Made by a program: the position numbers and the translations under genes. This document shows positions 2,305-24,042 of a stretch of 64,000 nt of DNA, one piece after another. Position 1 is the first letter of the stretch. The number at the start of each line of letters is the position of its first letter. The notes under the pieces were generated by a model. It saw only the letters and a program-made list of their open reading frames with translations. It was not told the DNA's origin and did not search any database. The DNA is from an uncultured delta proteobacterium (GTDB taxonomy: Bacteria; Desulfobacterota; WTBG01; CAIYCZ01), in contig CAWDOY010000045.1 in assembly GCA_963803975.1 (NCBI GenBank), positions 1-64,000 on the forward strand, read 5' to 3'.

Positions 2305-2868
2305 TTAAAACTTAACCTTCGGAACTTCTTTTGCAGCTTCCGGTGCTTCAAAAAATGCCGCCTTCTGAAAAGAGAACATCTTAGCTACCAGGTTCTGGGG
2401 GAAGCTGCGCACCGCCACATTATAGGTTTTGACCACTTCATTGTAGCGCCTGCGGGCAACGGCAATGCGGTTCTCAGTGCCGGCCAGCTCATCCTGCAGG
2501 CGGATGAAGTTTTCGTTTGATTTTAATTGCGGATATTGCTCAACCACTACCAGCAGGCGGCTAAGCGCTGAGGTCAGCTCGTTGTTGGCCTCGATTTTAT
2601 CAGGAATGCTTTGCGCCTGCCCCACTTTGGACCGGGCCTCCGTCACTTTTATGAACACTTCCTTTTCCTGGGCAGCATAGCCTTTGACCGTTTCCACATA
2701 GTTCGGAATGAGGTCATAGCGCCGCTGCAGCTGGGTCTCGACCTGCGACCACGCCTCCTTGACGCCTTCGTCAAGGCTCACCAGCGAATTATACATCCCG
2801 CATCCCGGCAAAAACACAGGCGCCATAATCAGCAGTATGATACCGAAAATTTTTGTGAATCTGTTCAT
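2305..2868 (-). CDS. lemA: LemA family protein
   Basis: YNSLV..DE.V..AWSQVE.QLQRRYDLIPN and YPQLKSNENF..LQDELAGTENRIAVARRRYN motifs. Confidence 0.93.
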   Translation of the reverse strand: MNRFTKIFGIILLIMAPVFLPGCGMYNSLVSLDEGVKEAWSQVETQLQRRYDLIPNYVETVKGYAAQEKEVFIKVTEARSKVGQAQSIPDKIEANNELTSALSRLLVVVEQYPQLKSNENFIRLQDELAGTENRIAVARRRYNEVVKTYNVAVRSFPQNLVAKMFSFQKAAFFEAPEAAKEVPKVKF

Positions 2869-2881
2869 GGTTATGCCCTCC

Positions 2882-3614
2882 CTATAGTTTCATTTCATCA
2901 ACAAATGCAGAAAGTTTTTTTATCTGCTCAATATATTCTTCCATGAAAGAGACTGCTTCTCCCGCAGAAAGCTTTTTAGTGCCTTCTTTTATCTTGAGGA
3001 TATCTAAAAACCGTGTGCTGTCAAGCCCGGTATCATGAGAAATAAGAGACAGCAGGTCGTTGCTTCGCGGGGGAATAGCCGTATCCTGCAAAAAGAGCAG
3101 CGCCCGGAAGATAGAATAGAATGTCGGCACAGACCGGGCAATCAATTTTTCGATCTCAGCCTTGCTGCCGCCGGTTTCCAGGAACTGCTCGCGGAGCTGC
3201 AGCAGCTTGCCCTTCAAGCTCCCGTTCACACTGAAGGCGCAGGAATTTCTTGTCTATGGAGAAGTTTTTCAGCACATCTTCACCGTAGATGACTTTATAA
3301 TGCGCCTGCAGGTTAAGAAACTCGATGGGAAAAACATCAAGGGATGATTTAATGTAGTCCGCAGTCAAAAACAGCGGGGTATGCACCCTTTTTTTGTGCC
3401 ACGTTAAGACCGCTTTCAACGCTTTGCTCAGATGGTCTATCCCGTTTTCGGTGAGCAGGATAAGAAAATTGATATCAGATTTTTTGGGGATATACTCACC
3501 CCGCGCGCCGCTTCCGTAGAGGATAATGGATAACAGATCAGGACCGAAAATCCCCTTATAATCGAGAATGATCTCCTGAAAAATTTCTTCCGGCTTGTCT
3601 GGTATCCTGGCCAT
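2882..3614 (-). CDS. Nucleotidyltransferase-domain protein (frameshift near 3215)
   Basis: LSIILYGSGARGEY...SDIN Pol-beta NTase motif, DVFPIEF and RLQCERELxG; helical C-terminus in ORF 2882..3229. Confidence 0.8.
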
Positions 3615-7001: not shown

Positions 7002-8739
7002 ATGTTGAGTCCGGGCGTTAAACGTTGGCTTATTAAAGAGCAGAATCCAGCCTTAAGTAAAAAGTTTTCCTCTTCTTTTAATATTTCTCCCCTGGTCTCG
7101 CAGCTTCTTATAAACAGAGGCCTCGAGAGCATAGACCAGGCAGATTTCTTCATCAATGCAACCTTGAAAGACCTCTACTCCCCCTTCCTCATGAAAGACA
7201 TGGACAGGGCTGTCCAGCGGATCATCACTGCGGTAGAGAAGAAGGAAAAAATCTGTATCTACGGGGACTATGACGTTGACGGCATTACTGCTACGGCTGT
7301 GGTGCTCCTGTTTTTACGGGAAGTTAATGCCAGCGTCTTCTATTTACCTGCCCAACCGCCTGCAGGAGGGCTACGGGCTTGATACTGAGGCACTGCAAAA
7401 AATAACCCGTGAGGGGGCAACGCTCCTCATAACCGTTGATTGCGGTATTTCTGATATCGAGCCCATTCAGTATGCCCGGACCAAAAACCTTGATGTTATC
7501 GTAACCGATCATCATGAGCCGCCGGAGAAACTTCCCCCCGCGTATGCGATATTGAACCCCAAACAGCCGGGCTGCTCATTTCCCTTCAAGGAACTTGCCG
7601 GCGTCGGCGTTGCGTTCAATCTTATCATGGCGCTGCGCACAAAACTCCGGGAGCACGGGTTCTGGCAGCAGGAAACTCCCCCCAATCTCAAGAACTATCT
7701 TGACCTGGTGGCACTCGGGACTCTTGCCGACATCGTCCCGCTTGTTGATGAAAACCGGATTCTGGTGAAAAGCGGTCTTACGGTGCTCAGCAAAGGAGAC
7801 CGCGTCGGGATCCGGGCTTTGAAAGCCGTAAGCGCTGTTCCTGAAGGCCCTGTGGCCGGTGATGCGGTGACCTATCGCCTTGCGCCGCGCATAAATGCCT
7901 CCGGCCGGTTGAGTACCGCTGCCACTGCAGCGGAGCTGTTAATAACCGGGGACGCAGGCGAAGCCCAGCGCCTGGCCCGGCTGCTGCATGAAGAGAACAT
8001 TAAACGGCAGCAGCTGGAGAAAACCATCACGGCCGAAGCCAGGGCCATGATCAAGGGGGAAGAACACCTTAAGAAGCCGCTGGTACTTGCCTCTCCCAAC
8101 TGGCATCCGGGCGTGATCGGCATCTGCGCCTCCCGCCTGGTTGAGGAATACTACCGCCCCACGGTACTTATTTCCATTGATGCCAGGACCCGCCAGGGAC
8201 GGGGCTCGGCCCGCAGCATTCACAGCTTTGATCTGTATCGCGGCCTCAAACAGTGCGCAGCGTTGCTCACCTCCTTTGGCGGCCACAAGTATGCAGCCGG
8301 GCTTACTATTCCCGCAGAAAACATCCCGGCTTTTGAAAAACAGTTTTCTGCTATTATCAGTGCCGCGATGCAGGATGAAGATTTTATCCCCTGCCTGGAG
8401 ATCGACGCCCAGATACCCTTGAGCGCTATCTCCGACGACGTTGTTGAAGACATGGAAAAGCTTGCCCCCTTTGGTACCGCCAACCCGGAGCCGCTGTTCT
8501 GCAGCCTTGACTTAAAATCTTACAGCTCCATGATCGTCGGTAACGGCCACCTTAAATTGAAGATAAAAGAGAATGGCTGTTTCTATGATGCGATCGGCTT
8601 TAATATGGGCACCGGCCATACGCTGCGGGACGAGGAAATCAAGCTGGCATTTGTTCCGCAGTTCAATCTCTGGCAGGGCATCAAAAGCATTCAGCTCAAG
8701 CTGAAGGACATTCAGAGCCAGCCCCTTGCAAACGCATAG
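7002..8739 (+). CDS. recJ: ssDNA exonuclease RecJ (frameshift near 7340)
   Basis: IYGDYDVDG, ITVDCG, TDHH, LAGVGVAF, LGTLADIVPL, GSARS and FGGHKYAAG motifs. Confidence 0.95.
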
Positions 8740-9016
8740 GCGCTCGCAAACAGCACCGGCACAGCACCCGTATGGCTGCTGACGCTTCGCAGGAAAAAGC
8801 AGCAAACATAAAGGTAACGGCCAGATCACCGGATACCGGGGCGCGGGTCGATGGCGTTCGGAAAATATCCTGCATGACTCCCGGAGATCGCATCGTTCAT
8901 AACGCAGGCGGAGAAGCGCTGTTTGAAAATATTTAATTTGGGGAGTATACAATAACTGTCCATCAAGGTGCAAAAAGACTGGGTCACCTGTTGCTTGCCG
9001 TAAAGGAGTCATAATC

Positions 9017-12000
9017 ATGGAAGAACAAAAAGATACCAAGGAAACCCCTGATCAGAACGGAGCCTCAGCCCCTGACAGTCTTCCAGATAATATAGAAAAG
9101 CTCCTCCAGGAACGGAAAAAGATTGATGACCTGCTCAAAGAGAAGTTTACCCGGCAGGTAACCGTCATGTTCACCGACATCAAGGGCTCCACATCCTTCT
9201 TCGAATCCCATGGAGATATCGAGGGCCGGCAGATGGTGCAGCAGCACAATGACATGCTGTTCCCCCTGATCGAGAGCTATCAGGGGCGGGTCATAAAAAC
9301 TATTGGCGATGCCATCATGGCGGGCTTTGATGATCCGGTTATGGCGGTCCGTGCCGGCTCGAACATGCAGCAGACTTTGAGTGACCACAACAAAGGAAAA
9401 GCTGCAAAAGAGCAGATTCACATCCGTATCGGCATCAATACCGGTGAAGGGATTGTCGAGTCCCGGGACATTTTCGGCGATGTGGTAAATGTGGCGGCCC
9501 GCGTTGAAGCGCTCTGTGCTCCGGACCAGATTCTCATCTCCGCACCGGTCTATGACGGGGTGCGCAAAACTGATGATATTATCTGCCGCTATGTCACGCA
9601 GGCACAGGTGAAAGGTAAAGAAGAGCCCCTGGACATATACCGCGTGGTGTGGGGCGATGAAGAGATGGTTGCCGGTGCCACCCGCTCCGGAGTCTCTGGT
9701 GCGGCGGAAAAGCTTACTAACAAGAAACGGGACGTGCGCCGGCGCCTGGAAATGGACCTTACCCGGGAAGGCAACAACCTGAAAGTCACCGCCCTGGTCC
9801 TCACTGAGAAAGAATCAAGCTCGCTTCGCCCCTATGAGGAAATGCATGTCTCCATGGACAAAATCGAAGAACGCAGCCAGGAGGTTATCAGTGTTTTGAG
9901 CCGGGCCAACACCCGCGGCCGCGTTTCAAAAGATATTCTGGCAAAACTGCGTGATATCGGGTCAGTGCTGTTTGATAATCTGCTGACCACGCGGGCCAAA
10001 GAAGTTATCCGCGCCACCGCAGTGCAGGACCTGGTCTTTAATATCGATGATACCCTGGTGCACATTCCCTGGGAGCTCCTCTATGACGGCGAGCAGTTTC
10101 TCTGCCGGAAATTTAACATGGGCAGAATTGTTAAAACCAGACAATCAATGGTGAACATAAAGACCCGGGTCCTGTCCCTGCCCCTGAAGATGCTGATACT
10201 GTCTGACCCGCGCGGCGACCTAAAGAGCGCTTTTGACGAAGGCCGCCTGATCCGGGAAGGGATGGATAAGAGCCCTTCCCGGGTGAATGCCAACCACCGC
10301 AGCGGGCAGATCAGCGCTGACTATATCATGGAGAAGCTGAGAAACTTTGATATGGTCCACTATGCGGGCCATGCAGACTATGATGCGAAAAACCCTTCCA
10401 ACAGCGGGTGGCTCCTGGAGGGCGGCAAGTTCACCTCTGCTGATATTATGAAGCTGGTGGGCGGCCGGCCATTGCCGGCCATGGTATTCTCTAATGCCTG
10501 CCAGTCCGGCCAGACCGAAGAATGGAAGCTCGAACAAAAATACAGCGAAAAAATATTCGGTCTGGCAAACGCCTTTCTGCTCGCCGGCGTGCAGCACTAC
10601 ATTGGCACCTTTTGGGAGGTGCTCGATGAGCCCAGCGCGCGCTTTGCTGAAAAGTTTTATCAATACATGCTTGACGGCGCTCCCATCGGAGAAGCGCTGC
10701 GGATGGCGCGGCTCTGCCTGGTAAAAGAATACGGGGAAGATACTATGGTGTGGGCAAGCTATATGCTCTATGGAGACCCGGGGGCCAATTATTTTGCCTC
10801 TGCCGAAACAGGGGCAGAGGAGGAGGAAAAGGAAGCACCGGCCCGGGCTGCGCCCGGGGCAGCGCAGCTCAGAAGCACTGCCCGGGAAACCGTCTCTTTT
10901 GATAAACAGCAGGCCGCCGGGATAAAAAGAAAGCGCCTGGTGCTGGGCAGCGTGCTCGCGCTGCTGGTGCTGATCGGCGCAGCTCTGCTGGCGCAGTGGC
11001 AGCGGGGTCAGGAGGTACCGGAACCCTATGGGCGGGCTTACGCGCTGCTGCAGGCCAGTCAGCCTGAGCAGGCACAGCGCTCATTTGAGCAGCTCCCCGA
11101 TAATGATTCCCGGCGCTTTGAGGGGCTGGCAGCAGTGCTGTTTGAGAGCGGGGACCTGGACAAGGCGCGGGAAATGACCGCTAAGGCACTTGAGCTCTTC
11201 CCCGGAAACATGTATGCGCATGTCATTAACGGCAGCATTCTGTTCTCCCAGGGAAAGCTTGATGAGGCTGCCCAGGAATATGAAAAAGCGGCACAGCAGA
11301 AGCGGGCCCCGTCCTGGCAGCGCGCGGAGGCGCTCAATGGTCTGGGACGGATCTATTCATCGCAGGGAGATGCGGAAAAGTCCCTCGTCTACTATGGTGA
11401 GGCGGCGTCCCTGAATCCTGCAAGCTCGGTCATCAACACCAATCAGGGCGTGGCTCTGGAAAGGAAGGGAAGTGTCGCAGAAGCAGCTGCCTATTACCGG
11501 AAAGCGGTAACAGCGAATCCGCAGGACGCGGTAGCAACAAGTCTTCTTGCCGATGCTGAGCGGAAGCAGAAGGCTGGCGATGATACGTCACGGCAGGAAA
11601 GGATTGACAAGCTTGTCAATGACCTGGTCGCAGCAAGTAAAAAGGCACCAGCAGCAAAACCGTTGCAGGATGCCTGGACATCGCGGCCCATTACGTTAAG
11701 CTTTGTAAATTTTCAGCATAAGGGCGGCTTTTCAATGCGGGAAGGGGAGGACGAGTTTTTCCAGCTGAAATTAAACGGGCTCCTCCAGGAAAGCGGGCGG
11801 GTGCAGGTTGTTGAGCGCGAGCTGCTGGATAAGCTTCTGGAAGAATTGAAGCTGAGCACTACCGATCTGGTAGATCCCCAGAAAGCCCTTGCAGTGGGAA
11901 AGATTCTTGCGGCACGGCTCATTGCAACCGGGTCTATGATGCGCTATGGAAAAGAGATTCAAACCAGCATCCGCCTGACAGAAACAGAAACCACCAGCCT

Positions 12001-12325
12001 CAAGGCAGCTATTGCTGAAACAGAAAAGGACATTAACCAGTTAGCAGAGAAGACCGCGCGCCAGATACTGGCAAAGCTTGCCCGGGCCTATCCGATACGG
12101 GGATATATCACCGCTGTCGAGGGTACTAACGTGGTATTAAACATCGGTTCCGAGGTGGGGGTGCAGCAGGGAATGGGCTTTAACGTGTTCGATGCAGGCA
12201 AGGAAGTCAGGGAAATTGGCACCATCCAGATAGCAGCGGTTGATAGTAAGAGCGCCTCTGCAGCACCGGCAAAGGAGATAACGGGCCTTGCCAAGGGCAT
12301 GAAGGTGGAGGCCATTATCAACTAA
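9017..12325 (+). CDS. Class III adenylate/guanylate cyclase - CHAT protease - TM - TPR - CsgG/FlgT-like fusion protein
   Basis: MFTDIKGST, IKTIGDA and DIFGDVVNVAAR cyclase motifs; IPWELL, HYAGH and SNACQS CHAT motifs; TM helix at about aa 641-660; TPRs; VVERELLDKLLEE CsgG-like region; VVLNIGSEVGVQQGM FlgT-C-like end. Confidence 0.88.
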   Translation: MEEQKDTKETPDQNGASAPDSLPDNIEKLLQERKKIDDLLKEKFTRQVTVMFTDIKGSTSFFESHGDIEGRQMVQQHNDMLFPLIESYQGRVIKTIGDAIMAGFDDPVMAVRAGSNMQQTLSDHNKGKAAKEQIHIRIGINTGEGIVESRDIFGDVVNVAARVEALCAPDQILISAPVYDGVRKTDDIICRYVTQAQVKGKEEPLDIYRVVWGDEEMVAGATRSGVSGAAEKLTNKKRDVRRRLEMDLTREGNNLKVTALVLTEKESSSLRPYEEMHVSMDKIEERSQEVISVLSRANTRGRVSKDILAKLRDIGSVLFDNLLTTRAKEVIRATAVQDLVFNIDDTLVHIPWELLYDGEQFLCRKFNMGRIVKTRQSMVNIKTRVLSLPLKMLILSDPRGDLKSAFDEGRLIREGMDKSPSRVNANHRSGQISADYIMEKLRNFDMVHYAGHADYDAKNPSNSGWLLEGGKFTSADIMKLVGGRPLPAMVFSNACQSGQTEEWKLEQKYSEKIFGLANAFLLAGVQHYIGTFWEVLDEPSARFAEKFYQYMLDGAPIGEALRMARLCLVKEYGEDTMVWASYMLYGDPGANYFASAETGAEEEEKEAPARAAPGAAQLRSTARETVSFDKQQAAGIKRKRLVLGSVLALLVLIGAALLAQWQRGQEVPEPYGRAYALLQASQPEQAQRSFEQLPDNDSRRFEGLAAVLFESGDLDKAREMTAKALELFPGNMYAHVINGSILFSQGKLDEAAQEYEKAAQQKRAPSWQRAEALNGLGRIYSSQGDAEKSLVYYGEAASLNPASSVINTNQGVALERKGSVAEAAAYYRKAVTANPQDAVATSLLADAERKQKAGDDTSRQERIDKLVNDLVAASKKAPAAKPLQDAWTSRPITLSFVNFQHKGGFSMREGEDEFFQLKLNGLLQESGRVQVVERELLDKLLEELKLSTTDLVDPQKALAVGKILAARLIATGSMMRYGKEIQTSIRLTETETTSLKAAIAETEKDINQLAEKTARQILAKLARAYPIRGYITAVEGTNVVLNIGSEVGVQQGMGFNVFDAGKEVREIGTIQIAAVDSKSASAAPAKEITGLAKGMKVEAIIN

Positions 12326-12390
12326 GTCCTTCGATTCATAAATTCGATGACGAATTTCTTCCCTCAGGACGTAGAGGGGCGGGGGCAGCC

Positions 12391-13811
12391 ATGTCTCAGC
12401 GGACCAAAACACAGCACCTGAAGGTTAATGAGCATACTATGCAGAGAGCACTGAAAAAGAGATTACCGGCGATTCATCCATGCACACTCATGCTGGTTGT
12501 TTTTTTACTCTGCCCGGTTCACCGCGCAGCTGCGCAAATCTTTTCCGATGTGCAGATCAATGCATCGCCCAACCCGGTTGGCTCCGGCGCACGCGCCCAG
12601 GGCATGGGCGGAGCGTTTATTGCCGTGGCGGATGATGCCACTGCTGCCTCCTGGAACCCCGGCGGTCTCATCCAGCTTGAGCGCCCGGAATTTTCTATTG
12701 TGGGCTCCTATGCATACCGGAAACGCCACGTTAACTCGGCCAGCAACCCGGAAGCTGACGGCTGGAACAGCGTAACCCGGGAGGACTTGAATTACCTGAG
12801 CTGTGCGCTGCCCTTCAGGGCCTTTGATAAAAACTTTGTTGTTTCCTTAAACTACCAGCGGCTCTACGACTTTTACAACAAGCTCTCCTTTGACTACGAC
12901 TACCGCTCGACCGGGAACAGCGGCATCTTTCAGAATGTACAGACAAAAACAGATTTCAACCAGACCGGGGCCTTGAAGGCGTTTGCCCCGGCCCTTGCCG
13001 TTCAGCTCACCCCGCGCCTGTCAGTCGGCGCAACCTTCAATTTCTGGACCGACAATCTTGGCTATAATAACGGCTGGCAAAATGTGAGAAAAGTTACCGG
13101 GAAGGGGTTTGCGCTTCTCCCGAACGGCAAGCTCGTCCAGTCCCGGTATCAATCGATCACCAAGGAAAAAAATGAAAATTTTGAAGCGTTCAATATGAAC
13201 CTGGGGTTTCTCTGGCAGGTGAACAGGGTTATTACCATAGGCGGTGTATTCAAAACACCGTTCATTGCTGATGCCGATCGACACACCTACAGCTCAAGTA
13301 CTGCCTATACGCTTGGTCAGAGTCCTCCACGGCCTAATCATTTATCAGATAATGAACATATCCGGCTGAAGTTTCCCAAGTCTTACGGGCTCGGGTATTG
13401 CCTTCAGGCTGTCTGATGCATGTAACCGTGGACTTAGATGTGTACCGGACCGAGTGGTCTGAATTTTATGTGCGGGCTGGCGGGGCAAAGACCAATATTG
13501 CCGGTGACCCCTGGGGCAAAACTCATCCCGGAGATACCACCCAGGTGCGGGCTGGCGGTGAATACCTGTTTATTCTCGAAAGGACCCTGGTTCCGGTACG
13601 CTTTGGCCTGTTCTACGACCCGGAGCCGTCAACAGGGCACCCCAAGGATTACTACGGCGTAAGCGCCGGCACCGGGGTCATGCTGGGGAATGTGGTGCTT
13701 GACTGCTGCTATATTTACCGCTGGGCTGATGGCGTGAAGTCAGAAGTTCCCAATGCCAAGAGAGATGATCAACAGCACACGTTTCTCGCTTCAATGATCA
13801 TTCACTTTTAA
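12391..13811 (+). CDS. Outer-membrane beta-barrel, FadL/OmpP1/TodX-like (frameshift about 13390-13425; start uncertain)
   Basis: Signal peptide, GSGARAQGMGGAFIAVADDATAASWNPGGL motif, amphipathic strands and C-terminal Phe. Confidence 0.8.
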
Positions 13812-13815
13812 AAAA

Positions 13816-15934
13816 ATGACGCCTATGAAAACTACAAGACTACTTCCGGTCATAGTCCTTTGCAGCGCGATCAGTATAATCGCGTTAGCCGGCGGCTGCA
13901 ATACCCCCCCGGACAAAAAGTATTCTAAGGATGGCAGGCAGTACGGCGTGGTAAAGGGGCTGTTCAGAGAGCGCTGGTGGAACTTCTACGAACGCGGGAG
14001 CTCTTTTTTACAGGGCGGTTTCTATCCCGAAGCCATAGCAGATTTTAAAGAGGCGCTCCGGCAGCGGGACCGTGACCAGCGCAGGGCTCGGACCTATGGC
14101 ATGCACTTTATAGACTATTTTCCTCACCGCGAACTGGGTGCATCCTATTTTCACACTGGTAATTTTAGCGAAGCGCAGAAAGAGCTTGAAGCATCTCTGT
14201 CCGAGGCAGATTCCGGCAGGGCCAAGTACTATTTAAACGAGGTGCGCAGGGCCATCCTCAAAACCTCTAAGGCAGATACTGCCCCTGCCACTATAAACCT
14301 GACCGCAGGAGGGGCAGAAGCCGTCAGCAACCGTTTTAACCTGAAAGTTGCAGGGGTGGTCGAAGATGAAGCATACGCCCGCACGGTCGCAGTAAACGAT
14401 GACCCGCTGTTTATTGAGCTGGCAGAGAAAAAGCTCGAGTTTTCTAAAGAAATAAAACTTAAAAAAGGTTTAAATGAGATCAGGATTAAAACGAGCGACC
14501 TGCTCGGTAATGTTTCAGAAAAAACAATTGCCGTAACCGGAGATTTTGAAGGCCCGCAGTTAAACGTCAACAATGCTGCTGACGGGCAGGAGGTAGGGCA
14601 GAACAAAATCGTATTACGCGGCGCCATTGCTGATGCGTCGGGCATTACCTCACTCACAATTAACGACCAGCAGCTTGCCTATAATAAAGAGCGGGACGTT
14701 GAGTTCAGCTATACCGTACAGCTCCATGAGGGCAGTAATACCATAAAACTGGCTGCCCATGATGTGGCAGGCAATAGAACAACCAATGAATTAAACCTTA
14801 TCTATGTGCCAAAGCTTGCGTACCGAAAACCATTGCATAACGTTGTCACCAAAGGCCATCGCAATGAGCAAAGAGCCCATTCGCCTGGCCCTGAGCGGCG
14901 AGGGCATTCTTGATACCGGCGCGCACCGTTTGTTTACGGCAGCTCTCCAGGAGCAGATGGGATCAGCGTTCAAGCTGACGCTCAAGGAGCTCGCAGACAA
15001 ACAGACCGTTTTTTATGACACCATGTATATAGATGGCAGCGTCTCCGGCCCTGATGACATTAGCGCAGTAACAATAAACAGCTCCCCGCTCTCAATTAAG
15101 AAGCCGGGCAAAACCATTTTCTTCAGCCAGCTCATAGAGCTGAAGCAGGGCGACAACAAGATCATTATCGAAGTTCAGGATACAAAGGGCGCCACAGCAT
15201 CAAAAACAGTCACCATAACGTATCAGATACCGGCAGTGAAGAAAATAGGCTCCCGGATGAGCGTGGCAGTGCTTCCCTTTGAACAGAAAGGTGACGCCAC
15301 GCCGGCAAGCAGCAGTATCTATGACAACCTGGTAACGGCATTTTTGAATCAGGAGCGTTTCAATATTGTAAGCAGAGGCCCGGAGCTCGAGGCTGCGCTC
15401 AGGGAATTAAAGCTCAGCACCACTGATCTGGCGGACAAAACCAAGGCATTGCAGGTGGGTAAAATTATTGCTGCCGAGGGCATCCTGACGGGAACCGTCA
15501 ATGAGACCAAAAACTCGATTGAAATCTATGCCCGCCTCATCAACACGGAAACCTCCGGCCTCATGGATGCAAAGGACGTGTATGCAGAGGACAAAAACCT
15601 TGCCCAGATCCAGTTCATTGCCAACGGACTCGCCTGGAAGTTTAAGCACAGCTTTCCGCTTGTCGAAGGCATCGTGATCAAAGCAGCAGGGAAAGAGGTC
15701 TATGCTGATTTTGGCAGCGCCAGCCGCGTCAAGAAGGACATGAAATTTATCGTCTTCAGGGAGGGCGAGATTATGGTGCATCCCGTAACCGGGAAAAAAC
15801 TTGGCGCTGAAACAAAAGAGCTGGGACAGGCCCGGGTCATAACCGTTCTGGAGGATATGACCGTCGGGAAACTTATAGCAGAAGTTATTGCCGGAGAGCA
15901 GATCCAGGTCAAGGATAAAATAATAACCAAATAG
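13816..15934 (+). CDS. Lipoprotein with TPR, Ig-like repeats and C-terminal CsgG/FlgT-like module (frameshift about 14810-14870)
   Basis: LAGGC lipobox; TPR; repeated L.KG.N.I.I.A.D..GN Ig-like units; VAVLPF...ERFNIVSR CsgG-like domain; HPVTGKKLG FlgT-C-like end. Confidence 0.78.
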
Positions 15935-16176: not shown

Positions 16177-16937
16177 ATGAAAGATCCTGTTTAAAGAAAT
16201 AGACAAACTTCAAACGGAAATAAATCAATACCGGCCATTGGATAAACGGCTTATTGAACAGCAAAAAGAATATTTCCGTATCGGTTTAACCTACAGCAGT
16301 AACGCCCTGGAAGGTAACTCTTTGACAGAAAATTGAAACCCGTAAGAGAATCAGATAGTTGATAGAAGAGTAGGGATTATCCATTGGCGGGAAACCATTA
16401 AAAGACCACTTTGAGGCAAGTAACTTGGCCACAGCGAGGCTTTTGATTTCATCTATCAAGCACTTCGCGTCAAAGGAAAGACCATTTCAGAACGCAGGAT
16501 ATAAAAGAGTTACACAGACTTTTTTACTTCAGGATAGATAAAGAAAATGCGGGGGAGTATAGAAAAGTTAAGGCATATATTACGGGTTCAAAGTATCCTC
16601 TTCCGGCTCCTGACGAGATCCCCAAGCTTATGATAAAGTTTATCGCAAATCTTAAATCCTCAAAAAAGAAAAGCATCCAGTTGAGCTTGCAGCATTAGCG
16701 CATAAAGAGTTTGTCTTTATTCACCCATTTGTTGACGGCAATGGGAGAGTAGGACGGCTGTTAATGAATTTAATTCTTTTGCAAGCGGGCTTCACCATAA
16801 CTATCATTCCGCCGGTAGTAAGACCGGAATATTTACAGACTCTGGAAAAAGCACATACCAGCGACAGTGATTTTATAACACTCATAGCCCGTATGGTACG
16901 GGAGACACAAAAGGATTTCCTGCGGCTATTTAAATAG
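16177..16937 (+). pseudogene. Fic family protein, multiply frameshifted (pseudogene or assembly error)
   Basis: Manual translation gives TYSSNALEGNSLT and FIHPFVDGNGRVGRLLMN; several indels between 16180 and 16700. Confidence 0.85.
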
Positions 16938-17025: not shown

Positions 17026-17083
17026 TGGTGCCTGGGACGAGAATCGAACTCATACAGGGCTAAGCCCCGAGGGATTTTAAGTC
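17026..17083 (-). repeat. att-like direct repeat: 3' part of tRNA-Leu(TAA) including CCA
   Basis: Matches 23883-23937 with one mismatch, runs from the anticodon arm to the 3' end and adds an encoded CCA. Confidence 0.9.
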
Positions 17084-17244
17084 AAGAACCCTTGAGTTTC
17101 CTAATCTCCTAAAATTATTAAACAAATTGAATTAACTTGCTTTTTGAAATTCTAAGTTTTTAGCAAATTTTGGAAAGTTTTTCACACACAGAAAGCTGAG
17201 TGTATTTTAAAATTTTACATAAACATCTCAGCGTCTGAAACACA

Positions 17245-17794
17245 TTATTGTACAACCCAGACCTGCTGCTGCGACCAGTATCCCGGACCACCCGGTCTTT
17301 CCTCCCAATGTCCCATCACCCACACATCACGGCTCTTGTCGTAATACTGTTCAACCCAGGATCTCTGGCTACCTGATACCCAGATCTGTTGAGTCTCCCA
17401 ATGGCCGCTCGGGGCATAATAAACAGGAGTAGGTGCATAGTAGACTGGAGCAGGTGCATAATAAGCCGGAGCATAGTATCCATAACCGTAGTAGGGAGCG
17501 CCATAGCCATAATAAGGATATCCTCCCAGATTTATTCCAACTGCCCAGCTGTTATAATAACCACCGTGGCCACCATAGTATCCACCGCCATGACCATAGT
17601 AGCCCCTATGGCCACCATAGTATCCACCGCCTGCTGTACCCACCGCCGCCATAGTGTCCACCGCCACCATGACCGTAACCCCCACGGCCCCCAGAGTATC
17701 CACCACCTCCATGACCCCCACGGCCTCCCGCATAGACAGCAGTAGATAGTGAAAGACATAAAACAAAGATTATAAACGAGATTAATTTTTTCAT
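17245..17794 (-). CDS. Secreted Gly/Tyr/His-rich low-complexity protein (frameshift near 17630)
   Basis: Signal peptide MKKLISFIIFVLCLSLSTAVYA, then GGYYGGH repeats, YYAP repeats and a Trp-rich tail. Confidence 0.75.
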
Positions 17795-17941
17795 CAGCCT
17801 ATCCTCCTTATTTCATGAATTCCCAATATGTAAACTGAGAACCCTTTTTCATTCAAACATTATACCCCTTCTATTTCCTTTATCCTATATATATTATAGC
17901 ACAGTCACGGAATTTTCTACTGAACCATTACATGATGGAAT

Positions 17942-18154
17942 TTAGAGCTTAATTATGAACGGAGCTATTATTAAAGTCAAACATACCAATATTAGAATTG
18001 TGAGATTTTCAATGAAATATGGAATTACGCACAAGCCAATACCTGCCACTAACGGAATTACCTTCGCTTGTCTTTTTCCGTAGACAAAATATGCAAAACC
18101 AAAGCATCCGGCAAAGATACCAATCATTAATGTTGTAGAATTCACTGTAATCAC
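17942..18154 (-). CDS. Small membrane protein
   Basis: 70 aa with hydrophobic segments and GFAYFVYGKRQ...PYF pattern. Confidence 0.6.
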   Translation of the reverse strand: MITVNSTTLMIGIFAGCFGFAYFVYGKRQAKVIPLVAGIGLCVIPYFIENLTILILVCLTLIIAPFIIKL

Positions 18155-18168
18155 TCTCTGCTCTGAAC

Positions 18169-18600
18169 TTAAGAACTACATCTCCCCCCGCACACAGTCA
18201 TAGGAATCCGAACACAGTTTGTCTTCTCCGGGTTAGCAGCCATTTTCTCTACCATGGGGTCAAATTTGTTCTCGGGTACTCCCATCTTTTTTGCAAGTAG
18301 CCTTACAAAGAACAGTAGATCCTCTTTTGTGGTGAGTCGTTCTGCTTTTCCCTCAATAATAACTGCCTTCCATTCCCGGTAGCTTTTATCAGAATTACAT
18401 ATCTTATAGGCTACCTTCTGGTTCTGCTTGATGCACCGTGCCATCCTTCCTCCCGGCATTGACCCGCAGTAAATATAATTACCCTCAGTAGCATAGGTGT
18501 TTTCTACAGCATACGGTTGATCTCCCTCCACTCCTATCAAGGTTCCCCACGTCCACTCCTCGATAAAATCCCTTATCTCTTTCTCAGTCATGTCTCTCAT
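18169..18600 (-). CDS. Pyridoxamine 5'-phosphate oxidase / NimA-like flavin-binding protein
   Basis: WGTLI...PYAV..Y...IY..S..G...I..N.KV...WKAVIIEGKAE split-barrel pattern; gagagg RBS. Confidence 0.75.
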   Translation of the reverse strand: MRDMTEKEIRDFIEEWTWGTLIGVEGDQPYAVENTYATEGNYIYCGSMPGGRMARCIKQNQKVAYKICNSDKSYREWKAVIIEGKAERLTTKEDLLFFVRLLAKKMGVPENKFDPMVEKMAANPEKTNCVRIPMTVCGGRCSS

Positions 18601-18657
18601 AAAATCCTCTCTTTCAAAAAATAAAAAACCCACCAATTCTTTGGCATAGCAACTAAT

Positions 18658-18840
18658 TTATAGCACCACAAGCCGATATAACTCAGCCTCATAATCAGTC
18701 AATGTTAATAGTTCGCCATTATCGAGGGTAATCTCCCACATGTTTGTGTAAATTCCAGTACCCTCAAAATCTTTGTGAGTTTTTTGGTCAGTAATTTTTA
18801 CTCTTTGTAACGGAGCTGCCATTCCTTTATTGGTTGTCAT
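18658..18840 (-). CDS. Hypothetical protein
   Basis: 60 aa ORF co-oriented with its neighbours. Confidence 0.4.
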   Translation of the reverse strand: MTTNKGMAAPLQRVKITDQKTHKDFEGTGIYTNMWEITLDNGELLTLTDYEAELYRLVVL

Positions 18841-18878
18841 TTTTTATAAGGTGTTAAAAAGAACATCTGCAAAATTAT

Positions 18879-19562
18879 TTAAGTGGCTGGGGTTTGTGTT
18901 GTACAGGGATCACTGATCAGGAAAAACTCCAACAAACCCCGTACAAGGCTTAAATAGTCAGAGGCTGCAGGGGTTCCTGAGCAAATGAAAACATTTAAAA
19001 CTCTTGCTATATAATTGCATATTCTTATTATGGTCTGGTTTTGTACTATTTGCTTGCACAGTGTCTGATCCGGAGTTTCGGAATTCATTATCTGGCATAA
19101 TCTGTATGACTGAAATGCTGAAATAATACTTCCAATATTACCGGTAATATTAACTATCAGACACACAGTGTCTCCACCGGCAGAAATAGTGGTTACTGTG
19201 CTCACTAATGACGATAGCGTGTCAAATACACCCCAAAGAGCAAATAGACATTGTGGATTGATTTGTGTGCCATCCTGTAGCACAGCCATATCTGCGGCAT
19301 AATCATCTACGATGGTTTTAAGTTGTTTATTATCTTTATTCTTTAAAGCGATTAGAAGATCATCAAGCAGGATCTGTGTTCTTAATGCTGCAGATGAAAG
19401 CTCGTCACCTTTATCGCTTGCCTGTAAGTCACGCTGCATAATGATTAAGAGTTTTTTTAGAAGGGCTTCATTGGATTGTTGTTGTGAAGCCAGTGCCTGC
19501 ATTGGCACTGCGCTTACCATGAAGCAGCAGAGCAGAAAAATGGCGAAAAGTTTTTTTGTCAT
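18879..19562 (-). CDS. Secreted Cys-containing hypothetical protein
   Basis: Signal peptide ending ALA; aaggag RBS; predicted helical. Confidence 0.7.
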   Translation of the reverse strand: MTKKLFAIFLLCCFMVSAVPMQALASQQQSNEALLKKLLIIMQRDLQASDKGDELSSAALRTQILLDDLLIALKNKDNKQLKTIVDDYAADMAVLQDGTQINPQCLFALWGVFDTLSSLVSTVTTISAGGDTVCLIVNITGNIGSIISAFQSYRLCQIMNSETPDQTLCKQIVQNQTIIRICNYIARVLNVFICSGTPAASDYLSLVRGLLEFFLISDPCTTQTPAT

Positions 19563-19633
19563 ACTTATATCTCCTTTAAATAAAGAAAGTCGGTTAATTA
19601 TTGACTGAATTAAACTTGGTTTTCAAATATTAC

Positions 19634-21306
19634 TTATTTCCCTATCCCATAAATCAATCGTGGTGTTGCTTTCACTGGCCCGTGAAATGTGCTGATGCCG
19701 TTCTGTCTATATCTTCAAGAAAATAGAAATATCTCTTACCGTTCAGTACCCACTGGTCAACGAAATCATATTCTGAACCTGATACAGATGAACCTAATGC
19801 TGGTATCAGTGCATTATTGACCTTCACAAAGCCCTCTGCCCTCCAGACATTAAAGCCAGCATTGTCTGTTTCAGATTCTGTTTTCCATTTGAGAATAACC
19901 TGTTCATTAAAAGGCACTGCTTTTAATGCTGAGAGTTCGATATTGGTGGGTGTTGATGCGACAGGCCCCCGAACAGGCCAGACGAAGTAGTTGGGGTCGC
20001 TCTTAATGGGGGTGCCGTTCACGTAGCCATAGTTCATGGCCACGCTCAAGGCGTCGTCGGCACTGGCAGCAGAACTCGTGCCCGACCAGTAGTAGTCGGA
20101 CTGCACGCCGGTAAAAGGATGACCGGCAGGCAGGGCTGGATTATATTTGCCGAAATCTATCAGGCTATGTAACTCTTTAACGTTGGGCAGTCTCCATGCA
20201 CCGGCTACAGAACCATCAGTTAATCCTGCTGTCCCACTTGCAACTCCGTTCAATAGTTTATAGCGTCGTACCAGTTTTTTGGACCACATGGATTTGCGTT
20301 CTTCAGCCAGATAAGCCCAGTCAAGTTGTCCGTAACCGTGCCATTACCATTGTCGGTAAATCGTGGACTGGGCAATGCAACGCCTTTTTGCAATGCACCA
20401 TCATCACCGGTTGCGTATGAGATTGTTTGTCCTGTTTGAGGAACAGGTGCAGGATAAATAGTACCTCCATTAACTGTTGTGGTGGTGGTGCTTGAAGTTT
20501 TGAACGCAATGTGATTTGGATGTGATAATCCAGAAGCAAAGACTCCAATAAATTCTCCAGTATGCAAGTATTCTAAAATGTTACTAGCACCAAAATTTGC
20601 TACAAATAGATGATGGTTTTCTGGATTAAAAGTTATTCCATAGGGACCATTAAAGCCTGTTATTGTTCTCTCTAATTGAAAAGTAGTTGGATTAAAAACT
20701 CCAATATCATTAATAAGGTCTCTTGCGACGTAAATATATTCGTCAGGACCAATAGCAATTCCCCGTGGACTCCCCCCAGTAGGAAAATAATTTATAAGAT
20801 TACCATCTAAATCAAACTCTTCTGCTCCCCCAAGTGCTGTATAAAGATGTCCATTTGGTCCTATGTTCATTGCAGCAGGTGTGAATGGGTTTAAGCCTCC
20901 ATTAAATGATTTAACAAAGTTGTCATTTTCATCATATTCTGCAATAAAACCTCCATCACCCGGTGTAACTGCAACGCCCACATATAAATGATTATTGTTC
21001 CCTATTGCCAAACCATAGGAGCAATGTATTTTGCGGTGTTTGTATATAGCCAATAACATTATGATTTTGGTTAATTTTAACTATTTTTGAACCTCCGATA
21101 CAAGCGACATATAAAATCCCATCACCCCTAAAAGCTAATTGACGTGGACTCTGTATTAAAGGGTCTGTGATGGTATCTATTAAAACTCCTTGTTGATTAT
21201 AAACCGTGATTTGACTTGAATACTCATTGCTTACATACATTTCCCAACCGTAAGCGTAACCACAAGACAACACAAGAAGCATTGAAAGAATAAATATCTT
21301 TTTCAT
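19634..21306 (-). CDS. Secreted NHL/beta-propeller + Thr linker + DUF1566 (Lcl-type C-lectin fold) + C-terminal Fn3-like domain protein (3 indels)
   Basis: Signal peptide; SPRGIAIGPD repeats; VPQTGQ, RFTDNGNGTVTDNLTGLIW, WRLPNVKEL, YYWS..VWPVR; ends NGISTFHGPVKATPRLIYGIGK. Confidence 0.8.
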
Positions 21307-21328
21307 GATAAACCCTCCTTTAAAGTAT

Positions 21329-22649
21329 TTATTTGCCAGTACCATATATCCACCTCGGCATTGCACTCACAGGACCATGCATAGTTGAAGTACCGTTCAG
21401 GTCTATATCTTCCAGTTTATAGTAGTAGGTCTTTCTGTTCTGGACATTGGTATCTACAAACTCATAAGATGCACCTTGAATGGATGAGCCTTGAGCGATG
21501 ATAAGCGATGAATTAATTTTTGTGTACTGACCATTCTCTGACATCTCACGGTAGAGGTTGAAGCCTGCGTTGTCAATTTCCGCTTCTGTACTCCATTGTA
21601 TAATAACCTTGATTGCTTTGGGGGTGGCGGTAAATGACGACAAGTCAATGACCGTAGAACCATCCTGTCCGCCACGCACGGCGCAAACACCTTTGTAGTC
21701 GGACTTACTGCCGTAGTACACGGCGCCGTTGCCGGAGGCCACGTGCCACGCGATGTTAGTAATGTTCACGTTTACGCAGATAGTAGACGACCAGTAACCG
21801 TAATAGGACGTCAACGTGTCGGGAAGAATGTGGTATCAATTGCCGGATTATGTCTGCTGTAATCAACAATCGACTGCAATTCATTCCTGTTGGGCAGCCG
21901 CCAGTCGCTATACCCCCCGGCGGGCAGGGTAAGGTTTTCTCAGCACGTACAACGCCTGTTCCCAGTTATAGGTTCCCGGCGCAGTTGCCTTGCTGCCACA
22001 TAAGTCCCGTGGCGTTATCGGTTACTGTACCGTCGCTGTTGTCGATAAACTATTATTTGACTGTCCACCACGCACGAGCACGAACATAGAGGATTGAGGG
22101 ATTATTGCCGAAGTACACGTAGCCGTTCCTGAAGCCCACGAACCACGCGAAGGTAGTACGCGAGACGTTGGTAGTAGACGACCAGTAATCGGATGCCACC
22201 GTGTCCGGGAAATAACTCGTGTTTATAGCCGGGCCGGGAGAGGGGATACTGCTGTCCACAAGGGTTGACAGCTCCTTTATTGTGGGCAGCCGCCAGTCAT
22301 CTTTACTCCCAAGCTGAGATTATTGCAGATAGTCAATTGCTGCTGCCATGTGTAGGTGCCGGGGGCTGTTGCCTTTTGCCACTCAAGCCCGGTAATCTGT
22401 CTCACGCACAATGCCGTTTCCAAGGTCGGTATATAATTGTAGGTTTGGGCCATACTGAGCATCCTGACCGTAGAACGGTTGCCCGGGTTGCGGGCAGGGT
22501 ATGGCACCCAAAGTGTTATCAGCATAACATAACGTCTGCCCCGTGTCGGGAACGGGTGAAGCAAATGCCATATTGGGTAAACCCAAGGCTAACGCTATAA
22601 TGACTGAGTAAAATACTATTGCCGATAGTTTGAACTTTTTACTTTTCAT
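21329..22649 (-). CDS. Secreted tandem DUF1566 protein with C-terminal Fn3-like domain (multiple indels)
   Basis: Signal peptide; PVPDTGQ, GQDAQY, TGLEWQ, DWRLP, two YWSST..AW.V...G.V..VR blocks; ends [16 protein letters not shown]. Confidence 0.78.
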
Positions 22650-22665
22650 TTTACCCTCCCTTTTG

Positions 22666-22706
22666 AAAAACAAAAACCCCCATCAGCACGCAAGCTGACA
22701 GGGGTA
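22666..22706 (-). terminator. Terminator-like hairpin in the 5' leader of the DUF1566 gene
   Basis: Minus strand acccctgtcagc-ttgcgt-gctgatgggggt followed by ttttgttttt, just before the RBS. Confidence 0.6.
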
Positions 22707-23003
22707 TAGATTACTGACCTAAATCTTTGTTATTCTCTTTGGTTACCCTCTTCATAAGCATCCCCGTTATTATTGTTAAACATCATATATAAATATAAAA
22801 TATATGTCAATCACTTAAATATATTATTATTTAAAATTTTGTATTAGTATCTATTGTATTTTAAGATATATTTTGACTTCTGTTTAAATTTTTTATAGAT
22901 TTTGCCGGTGAGAAATGATGAATGTATCTGGCGGCGAAGGGGATGGGACTATAGCAAGGGAATCGGAATGGATTGAGGCTGAAGGCAGCCCTGATAAATA
23001 GAA

Positions 23004-23030
23004 TGCCTGGGACGAGAATCGAACTTGTAC
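23004..23030 (-). repeat. Second att-like copy of the tRNA-Leu(TAA) 3' end
   Basis: tgcctgggacgagaatcgaacttgtac, 26/27 identical to 23883-23909. Confidence 0.85.
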
Positions 23031-23036
23031 CGAAAC

Positions 23037-23071
23037 TTGACAAATTACTCATGTTGAATATACTGTATATT
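23037..23071 (+). promoter_or_regulatory. TA promoter with palindromic operator
   Basis: TTGACA-N16-TATACT; palindrome aatatactgtatatt (23057-23071) overlaps the -10. Confidence 0.6.
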
Positions 23072-23113
23072 AAAGTACGTATTAAACTGATTAGTTAAAT
23101 GAGGAGTTGTAAA

Positions 23114-23400
23114 ATGAAACAGGGACCTGTTCAAAATCAATTGACGCTCTTTCCGTGCGTGTCAGGTTTGGCGAAGTTATCGAGGAGGCTGTTCAGGAAA
23201 ACACCCGTTTTTTAGTCAGCCGGCGCGGCAAACCCAAGGTGGTCATTCTTTCGGTGGAGGATTATGTTAAAAATATTATCAAGCAGCCGGAACTCCTGAC
23301 AAGAGTGCAGTTAAGTGCCAAAGCAGCCGGCGTGGATAAAATGACCGAAGAACAAATCTCTGCCGAGATTACATCCTACCGGCAAAACAAAGCGTACTAA
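23114..23400 (+). CDS. Phd/YefM family antitoxin (indel near the start)
   Basis: R.RFGEVIEEA...FLVSRRGKPKVVILSVEDY Phd pattern; gaggag RBS. Confidence 0.85.
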
Positions 23401-23418
23401 AAAATAGCGATCGGCACC

Positions 23419-23541
23419 ATGCTGAAAGTGGTCATTGATATCAATGTGCTGGTCTCAGCACTCACGTTCAATGAGCCAGTTCAGGCGGGCTATTCTTTTT
23501 TTTTATCAAAGTATCCGGCAATCATAAGGAGAGGCTCTTGA
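23419..23541 (+). pseudogene. Truncated PIN-domain toxin
   Basis: MLKVVIDINVLVSAL PIN N-terminus, then unrelated sequence and a stop after 40 codons. Confidence 0.7.
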
Positions 23542-23795
23542 TCACTTTGTGCTGCGCAGTAATTTTTTTATATGCCTCATATTACGAACAGCCAGTCAAA
23601 CCATTCTTCATTATCTCCAAGTTTTCCGGACCTGAACTTTTCAGCGAATTTTACGCTTTTCATTCGGTGTTTCTTTTCAAACGCTTTGAGGCGACGAAGA
23701 TAATTTTCTGCCTTTGCTGACAGGATTTTTTCCTTTAACGCCATCCCTGATCGCAATAAAGGCATTGCTTCATTTTTTACGGCAATTTTTTGCAT
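23523..23795 (-). CDS. Putative antitoxin (TumA-like; indel near the 3' end)
   Basis: RLKAFEKKHRMKS..F..KF.SGKLGD.EEWFDW pattern; ggag RBS. Confidence 0.6.
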
Positions 23796-23882
23796 GGTAT
23801 TCTCCTTGGAGGGTAACATGAATCAAAAAATCATTTTACCCTGCGCCTTGCCAAGCGGGCAGGCTGTTAGGCAGCAAAAAAA

Positions 23883-23967
23883 TGCCTGGGACGAGAATCG
23901 AACTCGTACAGGGCTAAGCCCCGAGGGATTTTAAGTCCCTTGCGTCTGCCAGTTCCGCCACCCAGGC
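23883..23967 (-). tRNA. tRNA-Leu(TAA), CCA not encoded
   Basis: GCCTGGGTGGCGGAACTGGCAGACGCAAGGGACTTAAAATCCCT...GAGTTCGATTCTCGTCCCAGGCA; long variable arm. Confidence 0.96.
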
Positions 23968-24042
23968 ATATCGTTACTAATGACTTTATATTTGAAGCGT
24001 AAAAAATAATACTAACTTTGGCACTGCCTGTCAAATCAGATT

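Follow-up and report, generated by a model that had tools for sequence, protein, structure and literature searches.

Three adjacent, co-oriented genes in the genome of an uncultured deltaproteobacterium raise the question of how an outer-membrane assembly might be coupled to enzymes in the cytoplasm. They lie between positions 9017 and 15934 of the 64,000-nucleotide stretch that was analysed (the window; contig CAWDOY010000045.1 of assembly GCA_963803975.1) and encode a predicted inner-membrane receptor with cyclase and caspase-like CHAT protease domains (gene 1), an outer-membrane barrel (gene 2) and a lipoprotein (gene 3). A sequence-only reading had taken them for a three-gene relay across the envelope. 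Sequence and profile searches establish that genes 1-3 and their domains are real, and the trio proved to be conserved, but the relay as proposed was incomplete, missing a sigma factor of the extracytoplasmic function (ECF) type together with its soluble anti-sigma factor. Our favored interpretation, to which we assign a probability of roughly 0.6, is that Desulfobacterota-type bacteria possess a five-gene module for signalling across the envelope, to which the trio contributes the sensor and the enzymes and in which the cytoplasmic CHAT protease would cut the anti-sigma factor and itself while the cyclase would make cyclic AMP (cAMP). The module is real and conserved, apparently undescribed, and the window species carries a reduced form of it.

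The first issue is whether the genes form a conserved unit. At an E-value of 1e-60, matches to gene 1 occurred in 42 of 401 genomes, many through the periplasmic part alone, and a scan of the genome collection with gene 1 returned only 2 loci. Seventeen receptor-anchored loci, in which a cyclase or CHAT domain accompanies a CsgG module, were compared (L001, L002, L033-L044, L047, L050 and L052 in our numbering). The lipoprotein gene is adjacent in 16 of the 17 and the barrel gene in 14, with two contigs ending early, so that the neighborhood check upheld the predicted co-conservation. Of 457 stretches from a scan anchored on the lipoprotein, 359 were confirmed and the best 80 kept; lipoprotein counts within that set are circular. 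The order recJ, sigma factor, anti-sigma factor, receptor, then barrel and lipoprotein recurs in L033-L038 and, with one end cut short, in L001 and L002. Rearranged versions occur in L040, L041 and L047, the module is also present in many metagenome loci, and recJ heads the locus in L002, L033-L038 and L042. A 703-member cluster bearing no name was also found, and the hosts are mainly Thermodesulfobacteriota. Judged by gene content and order, the conserved unit is one of five genes, encoding the ECF sigma factor, the soluble anti-sigma factor, the receptor, the barrel and the lipoprotein.

The distribution of the parts among genomes is nested. In the 42 genomes of the class, the lipoprotein occurs in 23, this CHAT subfamily in 17 and the anti-sigma factor in 14 (the window remnant described below included). 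All 17 CHAT genomes and all 14 anti-sigma genomes fall among the 23 with the lipoprotein, and none of the 19 lipoprotein-less genomes has either. This CHAT subfamily is found in 12 of the 14 anti-sigma genomes, and the other two have a TPR-CHAT gene in the same locus. For a comparison of receptors, 57 open reading frames (ORFs) were reduced to 49 by removal of redundancy at 90% and to 42 by requiring at least 1.5 kb of upstream sequence. A sigma or anti-sigma gene stands beside 24 of the 36 CHAT receptors and 0 of the 6 CHAT-less ones (Fisher p 0.0035, a value that overstates the case because kin are not independent).

Gene 1 (9017..12325, plus strand) is a single open frame of 1102 amino acids, and the architecture proposed for it from sequence held up. 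Its Guanylate_cyc (residues 44-203), CHAT (315-587), TPR and CsgG (923-983) domains all exceed the Pfam cut-offs, with 124 bits against a cut-off of 24 for CHAT (PF12770, E 8.6e-36; 9959..10777). One strong hydrophobic segment at residue 641 (10937..10993; hydropathy 2.79, runner-up 1.41), preceded by basic residues and without a signal peptide, argues for an N-in topology. The single helix is in keeping with the arrangement originally predicted, in which the cyclase and CHAT domains would be cytoplasmic and the TPR array and CsgG/FlgT-like module (11030..12322) periplasmic. The cyclase domain (9146..9625; PF00211) has the fold of the adenylyl cyclase Ma1120 (root-mean-square deviation 1.5-1.7). 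All six signature residues of class III adenylyl cyclases are present and conserved among 121 aligned rows: the metal ligands Asp54 and Asp98 (116 each), the transition-state residues N158 (112) and R162 (117), and the adenine-selecting residues K94 (95) and D155 (112). The domain is therefore classed as adenylyl type and is a predicted cAMP maker. In the CHAT domain, His452 is found in 116 and Cys495 in 117 of the 121 rows, the remaining rows being gaps, so that both enzymes retain intact catalytic residues. The CHAT domain also gave weak matches to SAVED-CHAT, DdvA and separase; a fold search with the whole receptor returned only cyclases and one TPR protein and was uninformative on the CHAT pocket.

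The cytoplasmic part of the receptor varies between loci, comprising cyclase and CHAT, cyclase alone, CHAT alone, kinase-cyclase-CHAT, or TIR. At L175:7896-9140, a TIR-membrane helix-CsgG receptor stands ahead of the lipoprotein and barrel. In L039, a receptor that lacks a sigma gene lies between a gene for a cyclic nucleotide monophosphate (cNMP)-binding protein (2501-3214) and a kinase with a cNMP-binding domain (8681-10114); these flanking genes likely constitute a cAMP output.

What would the protease cut? The anti-sigma factor, encoded beside the ECF sigma factor, matches the zinc domains of RsiW, DdvA and ChrR, and its His/Cys/Cys zinc ligands (HxxxCxxC), the signature of class I zinc anti-sigma factors, are invariant in 14 of 14 sequences. 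It lacks a membrane segment in 35 of 35 and is thus soluble. A hydrophobic-Arg-Gly/Ser motif occupies its otherwise variable linker in 31 of 32 locus sequences. The Arg is kept in 145 of 146 representatives of 28% mean identity (150 listed minus 4 giant repeat proteins), a count subject to mild circularity in that the search profile contained the Arg column; the zinc ligands are kept in 143-145. The same motif appears in 65 of 96 cyclase-CHAT linkers (shuffles: mean 18.0, maximum 32) and 76 of 100 CHAT-membrane linkers (shuffles: mean 18.1, maximum 32), compared with 5 of 109 periplasmic control linkers and 0 of 7 CHAT-less receptors (1.6 expected). In gene 1 the predicted self-cleavage sites are Thr-Arg223-Ser (9680..9688) and Leu-Arg619-Ser (10868..10876). 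The Arg619 column is at least 90% conserved over 54 rows, and both linkers are disordered in the L001 model (predicted local distance difference test, pLDDT, below 50 at residues 217-237 and 606-632). We infer from these patterns that CHAT cuts after Arg in the anti-sigma linker and in its own two linkers; in relatives of the window species, cleavage of the inhibitor at a single Arg would probably set the sigma factor free. Arg motifs in the N-termini of neighboring kinases were not conserved in the 4 sequences viewed.

A sister form bears on this prediction. L176, L180, L183 and L184 encode the same lipoprotein and barrel together with an apparently exported TPR-CHAT protein and a single-pass anti-sigma factor, and in the first three the Arg motif is found beyond the membrane helix, the fourth (L184) having Val-Arg-Thr. 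As a natural control, this form, in which CHAT is apparently exported, supports the assignment of the motif as a CHAT site. The exported form as a whole comprises L176, L180, L182, L183 and L184, with a single-pass zinc anti-sigma factor in 4 of the 5 and DUF4384 in two. Candidate acidic residues for an Arg-accepting pocket are conserved in the CHAT domain (Glu408 in 116, Asp537 in 114 and Glu/Asp534 in 113 of 121 rows), and separase, a eukaryotic relative, cuts after Arg (PMC11506125; PMC12609080).

The freed sigma factor would need a promoter, and a candidate is present in the locus. The bipartite motif TG(T/C)AAGAA-N14-(C/T)GTCTAT occurs where the sigma gene ends, oriented toward the anti-sigma gene, in 25 of 37 regions (shuffles: mean 1.0, maximum 5; two of the 37 are near duplicates). 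A shared motif upstream of the sigma gene was not found; the one identified sits downstream. ECF sigma factors commonly autoregulate, and on this ground and from the position of the motif the sigma factor is predicted to read this conserved promoter 5' of the anti-sigma gene. Outside the training set, the promoter matrix matched before the barrel gene (L131), the lipoprotein gene (L145, L152) and genes for signal-peptide proteins, including a papain-family protease and an NHL protein; matches also precede secreted proteases and leucine-rich repeat (LRR) proteins. A scan of the window genome at 14 bits or more gave 49 matches against 39 and 31 in shuffles, none of them at the locus. L046:4739-19905 brings together a sigma gene, an anti-sigma gene, a row of four CHAT genes and two perfect promoter sites that precede genes for small secreted proteins.

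On the outer-membrane side, the window fragment of gene 2 scores 25.4 bits against Toluene_X/FadL (PF03349; cut-off 29.7), while its homologues in L087 and L108 exceed that cut-off. Profile matches to CymD, TbuX, TodX, FadL and PorV, with a nearly invariant N-terminal hatch motif of the FadL type, bear out the FadL-like fold first suggested despite the low Pfam score. The best NCBIfam matches, both below cut-off, are BamG (E 5e-17; 62 vs 250 bits) and PorV (38 vs 90 bits), which places the barrel closest, among NCBIfam models, to FadL-fold barrels that bind proteins. In-frame fusions in L087 and L108 place the barrel behind a secreted BNR/Vps10 propeller with a CFI-box tail; in these fusions (L087:2-3094 and L108:3799-7860) the propeller also carries a carboxypeptidase-regulatory domain. 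The propeller family was found in 12 loci and the CFI-box matched 31 times in the window genome; no mention of the CFI-box was found in the literature searched. The gene 3 product has an invariant lipobox Cys (19 of 19) and TPR, Ig-like and CsgG matches, and it matches FlgT in fold (3w1e, E 5e-10), which bears out the earlier assignment. In the model, a TPR-like N-domain is followed by three Ig domains and, at the C-terminus, by a FlgT-like module. A disordered inter-Ig loop in the L001 lipoprotein (residues 337-383; window ~14820-14900) contains a partly conserved Pro-Ile-Arg-Leu-Ala.

The C-terminal modules of receptor and lipoprotein are 33-35% identical. When the periplasmic part of the L001 receptor was folded with the C-terminal part of the L001 lipoprotein, the complex scored 0.45 against 0.01 for the best control, with contact agreement of at least 68% and partner pLDDT of at least 81. 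Among the benchmark pairs, 116 of 157 solved and 2 of 215 mismatched ones reach the mark. The model weakly suggests that the two modules bind each other, which lends weak support to that link of the relay.

These observations can be arranged into a working mechanism. The lipoprotein and the FadL-fold barrel, as their gene order suggests, would form an outer-membrane unit whose CsgG/FlgT-like module, on the lipoprotein, may bind the homologous periplasmic module of the receptor; the lipoprotein would thus link barrel to receptor. An envelope or surface cue might alter this contact and cluster the single-pass receptor, switching on both cyclase and CHAT. The leading guesses for the cue are the state of surface proteins and, a little less likely, attack on the envelope, neither of them favored strongly. 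Class III cyclases act as dimers. CHAT would then cut after Arg at the hydrophobic-Arg-Gly/Ser motif of the soluble zinc anti-sigma factor and, as motif conservation suggests, at its own two linkers, releasing cyclase and protease from the membrane. The freed ECF sigma factor may fire the promoter that precedes the anti-sigma, receptor, barrel and lipoprotein genes, and probably also the promoters of secreted surface proteins.

Several results weigh against this mechanism. Part of the data had already been viewed when the Arg motif and the promoter pattern were defined, and the absence of the motif from CHAT-less receptors is close to what is expected by chance. Nor do the pocket residues establish Arg specificity: Asn replaces the Asp that metacaspases have two residues before the Cys, and the separase pocket Asp (D2070) appears to be aligned with Ala, assuming the conversion of human to fungal numbering. 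An exact-pattern promoter search of 10 genomes gave 15 matches against 8 in reversed controls (7 vs 6 and 8 vs 2); five of the 15 are the sigma loci themselves and several lie inside genes or face nothing, so that a wider regulon is merely hinted at. CHAT occurs without the anti-sigma factor in 12 of 36 loci and in 5 of 17 genomes plus the window genome; the anti-sigma factor is therefore not the sole reason for CHAT, and the dependence runs one way. The complex score is weak, its runs spread over 0.45, 0.07 and 0.51, and at scores of 0.60 or below the benchmark holds 18 of the 157 solved pairs together with both mismatches. Finally, all 15 loci of a related TPR-CsgG family (L053-L067) have neither barrel nor lipoprotein. 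The proteins of this family are 650-700 amino acids long, with a thioredoxin-like N-domain in L054; their neighbors include a small FlgT-like gene and kinase, PP2C, FHA, HtrA-like and sheath-like genes.

The window copy of the module has lost its regulatory half. Directly 5' of gene 1, L001 and L002 encode an ECF sigma factor (TIGR02937, above cut-off) and a 250-amino-acid zinc anti-sigma factor, which in L002 sit between recJ and gene 1. In the window only a decayed 3' end of the anti-sigma gene persists (8787..9014, plus strand), 57% identical to the L002 protein over residues 174-248, with a profile match of E 2.9e-13 and with a stop and frame breaks; lost by deletion are the ECF sigma gene, the promoter of the module and, from its 5' side, two thirds of the anti-sigma gene. 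The deletion is real, since contigs of two studies join the recJ end directly to the remnant, skipping 106 further bases, and mis-assembly is thereby ruled out. A full anti-sigma gene was not found elsewhere in the window genome, in which the sigma factor had only two distant matches. With sigma, promoter and most of the anti-sigma gene gone, we infer that nothing beyond the arm of cAMP synthesis and self-cleavage can be left. A TPR protein and a Ser/Thr kinase-FGE fusion lie 3' of the module in L001 (8301-14412), L034, L090, L092 and L177, joined in L001 and L090 by PP2C and FHA genes as well; kinase, PP2C and FHA were not found in the window genome with the queries used.

Whether genes 2 and 3 are intact depends on how the assembly is read. 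The 4-bp gap between them is confirmed (gene 2 stop ending at 13811, gene 3 ATG at 13816), as is the close co-oriented arrangement, although in the assembly each gene consists of two ORFs: 12391-13416 and 13398-13811 for gene 2 (12391..13811, plus strand), and 13816-14913 and 14804-15934 for gene 3 (13816..15934, plus strand). Gene 2 contains two extra bases; that at 13392 is absent from the short-read contigs of 4 of 4 runs and that at 13422 from 3 of 4, so an assembly error accounts for its break. That of gene 3 (~14860-14875) is not among the read differences listed. It is probably an assembly error too, since a contig that spans it has one gap there and the gene is whole (704 amino acids) in L001. 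That relative, 92% and 86% identical to the window in nucleotides over two aligned blocks, also has an intact 480-amino-acid gene 2. True pseudogenes are thus ruled out for gene 2 by the reads and unlikely for gene 3; the three-gene reading is correct for the organism, not for the window letters. The conserved 5' neighbor recJ (7002..8739, plus strand; DHH, DHHA1 and RecJ_OB domains) is likewise split into two ORFs, by an extra base at 7343 that is absent from short-read contigs in 4 of 4 runs (four studies). Contigs from RNA libraries cover parts of recJ and genes 1-3, DNA carry-over being possible. A sigma-70-like site 5' of recJ was considered and set aside, with 13 sites against 8.7 expected and no evidence for read-through.

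Other features of the window can be listed briefly. A dispersed intergenic repeat of ~54 bp (12321..12376) has 13 further matches in the genome and shows a read depth spike and loose ends. A tRNA-Leu(TAA) gene lies at 23882-23968; its 3' end recurs in a 55-bp copy (17029-17083), and there is a further, 28-bp copy (23003-23030). The interval 17029-23968 likely represents one or two integrated elements, with Lcl_C and NHL genes on board. Several frame shifts break a gene at 16180-16935 that we take to be Fic-like from its motif; they are at least partly assembly error, because the reads show many indel differences there.

Readings other than a proteolytic sigma switch must be set against this evidence. 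The barrel and lipoprotein might mainly export or anchor large surface proteins, in the manner of PorV and BamG, with the receptor monitoring cargo or the surface layer. The NCBIfam ranking of the barrel, its fusions to the propeller and the spread of that family over 12 loci all fit, as does the anchoring of the lipoprotein BamH by BamG (PMC12611786). All 8 class genomes without a CFI-box match also lack the lipoprotein, and 20 of the 23 lipoprotein genomes have at least 5 such matches. The association is not strict, however, for 9 of the 19 lipoprotein-less genomes also have at least 5; the BamG and PorV scores are far under their cut-offs, and the neighboring secreted proteins differ in type and tail. 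We regard this account as somewhat unlikely, although it is compatible with the proteolytic mechanism and would name the module's signal. The same barrel could instead import a hydrophobic ligand, as FadL does, which the lipoprotein would hand to the receptor. The nearly invariant hatch motif and the presence of CymD, TbuX, TodX and FadL among the structure matches speak for this. Its partners, however, are TPR, Ig and FlgT-like modules of the protein-interaction type, no lipid or hydrocarbon catabolic genes were seen among the scanned neighbors, and BamG and PorV share the fold yet bind proteins. We consider ligand import highly improbable, and for the hydrophobic cue once suggested the data gave no pointer, the barrel being nearest to BamG and PorV and fused to a secreted propeller in 2 loci.

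A role in innate defense, in which a phage, predator or rival breaching the envelope would elicit cAMP synthesis, proteolysis and a defensive or toxic response, is unlikely in our judgment. It draws on the exchange of the cytoplasmic part between cyclase, CHAT, kinase-cyclase-CHAT (L043, L044) and TIR (L175), which is typical of conflict systems, on the antiviral function of known CHAT-sigma pairs (PMC10028731, PMC11506125), and on the promoter matches before secreted proteases and LRR proteins. Against it, the locus is no variable island, standing stably beside recJ and pgi across an order; PADLOC returned only weak PycC matches to the cyclase (39 and 26 bits) and none for the other four proteins, and defense-like features among the scanned neighbors were limited to a SLATT gene (L049) and the TIR receptor. 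A further reading concerns the window copy alone, which could be a decaying relic whose operon began to break down with loss of the sigma factor. Beyond the deletion itself and the missing kinase, phosphatase and FHA block, the receptor has been lost in L086 and L171, and on the window branch the CHAT region shows 12 amino-acid and 17 silent changes, against 0 and 8 in L001 (p 0.036), a hint of relaxation that assembly errors may explain. Gene 1 is nevertheless uninterrupted, and neither its catalytic residues nor its two Arg sites have been lost. Its ratio of nonsynonymous to synonymous polymorphism (pN/pS) is ~0.2 in the cyclase, CHAT and CsgG parts, itself inflated by assembly errors; the gene 2 break is absent from reads, and sigma-less CHAT receptors are common (12 of 36), that of L039 being flanked by cNMP-binding genes. 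Decay thus strikes us as quite improbable.

Returning to the proteolytic sigma switch, a broader generalization can be entertained, although we hold it tentatively and at less than even odds: the lipoprotein-barrel pair may be a general, undescribed outer-membrane sensor for swappable inner-membrane effectors (cyclase, caspase, kinase, TIR), coupled through paired FlgT-like modules, whose main form would be a self-releasing caspase that cuts a soluble anti-sigma factor at one Arg-Gly site, forming a chain from receptor through caspase to transcription over two membranes, to control secreted surface proteins. The solved cases of CHAT proteases considered here are tied to CRISPR or CBASS, and most bacterial CHAT proteins have no known substrate or trigger. 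The module would offer an example independent of CRISPR, for which the substrate is named and a cut site, two self-cleavage sites and a promoter are predicted. If the scheme is true, it adds a route across both membranes that needs no intramembrane protease, in a common sediment lineage, and assigns a function to a set of FadL-fold barrels whose role may be to bind proteins and not to carry lipids.

How does the module compare with known systems? A published description of this gene set was not found in the literature searched, which mostly excluded subscription journals; caspase-ECF systems of other make-up have been proposed (PMC8195603). Among outer-membrane relatives, BamG-BamH of the Bacteroidota β-barrel assembly machinery (BAM) and PorV share a FadL-fold barrel that holds a lipoprotein, but they serve BAM or type IX secretion and no signalling chain (PMC12611786); gene 2 scores far below both cut-offs. 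FlgT (PDB 3w1e, 8z5n) has the fold of the gene 3 C-terminal module, which is homologous to that of gene 1, but the module version is fused to TPR and Ig domains and no flagellar context was seen. Pycsar has a stand-alone PycC and a cNMP-gated effector, whereas the module cyclase is fused into a receptor, with only the weak domain matches given above. NsrA of Sinorhizobium meliloti, with CyaK, CyaD1 and CyaD2, likewise leads from an outer-membrane receptor to inner-membrane adenylate cyclases; these are of the CHASE2 type, and in the abstract (PMC7529298) no protease, sigma factor, FlgT-like module or module lipoprotein is described.

Among sigma factor systems, ECF54 is also an uncharacterized ECF group; its +1 neighbor is carboxypeptidase-regulatory-like, and a CHAT gene lies nearby. 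It is, however, 100% actinobacterial, with subtilases, no recognized anti-sigma factor and a GTATCAG/CTCC promoter, and the accessible part of its supplement (PMC7826278) mentions no barrel, lipoprotein or cyclase; the module sigma factor is set apart by its mainly Thermodesulfobacteriota hosts and its different promoter motif. DdvA/DdvS of Myxococcus xanthus comes closer, sharing a zinc anti-sigma factor, an ECF sigma factor, TPR and CHAT domains, an envelope-spanning chain and proposed autoproteolysis (PMC11506125). In DdvA, TPR-CHAT is periplasmic and fused to the anti-sigma factor, whereas the module is predicted to have a cytoplasmic CHAT on a separate receptor and a soluble anti-sigma factor, and adds cyclase, barrel and lipoprotein; the sister form (L176 and its kin) resembles a split DdvA. 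Craspase (Csx29 TPR-CHAT, Csx30 and CASP-sigma) provides the precedent for a CHAT protease that cuts a sigma inhibitor, with a cytoplasmic CHAT beside a soluble inhibitor and an ECF sigma factor and with target promoters in the locus (PMC10028731). Craspase has a CRISPR effector, and the module has none, its protease instead being membrane-anchored, cyclase-fused and linked to the periplasm and outer membrane; Cas7-11, Csx30 and Csx31 were absent from the conserved neighbors of module loci. The inhibitors differ as well, that of the module being of the zinc type, and the reported Craspase cuts follow Met or Leu (PMC11506125), the predicted module cut Arg. By analogy, the module would act like the Csx29-Csx30-CASP-sigma arm (PMC10028731; 10.1101/2023.06.23.546230) joined to an NsrA-CyaK-like chain, while being a member of neither.

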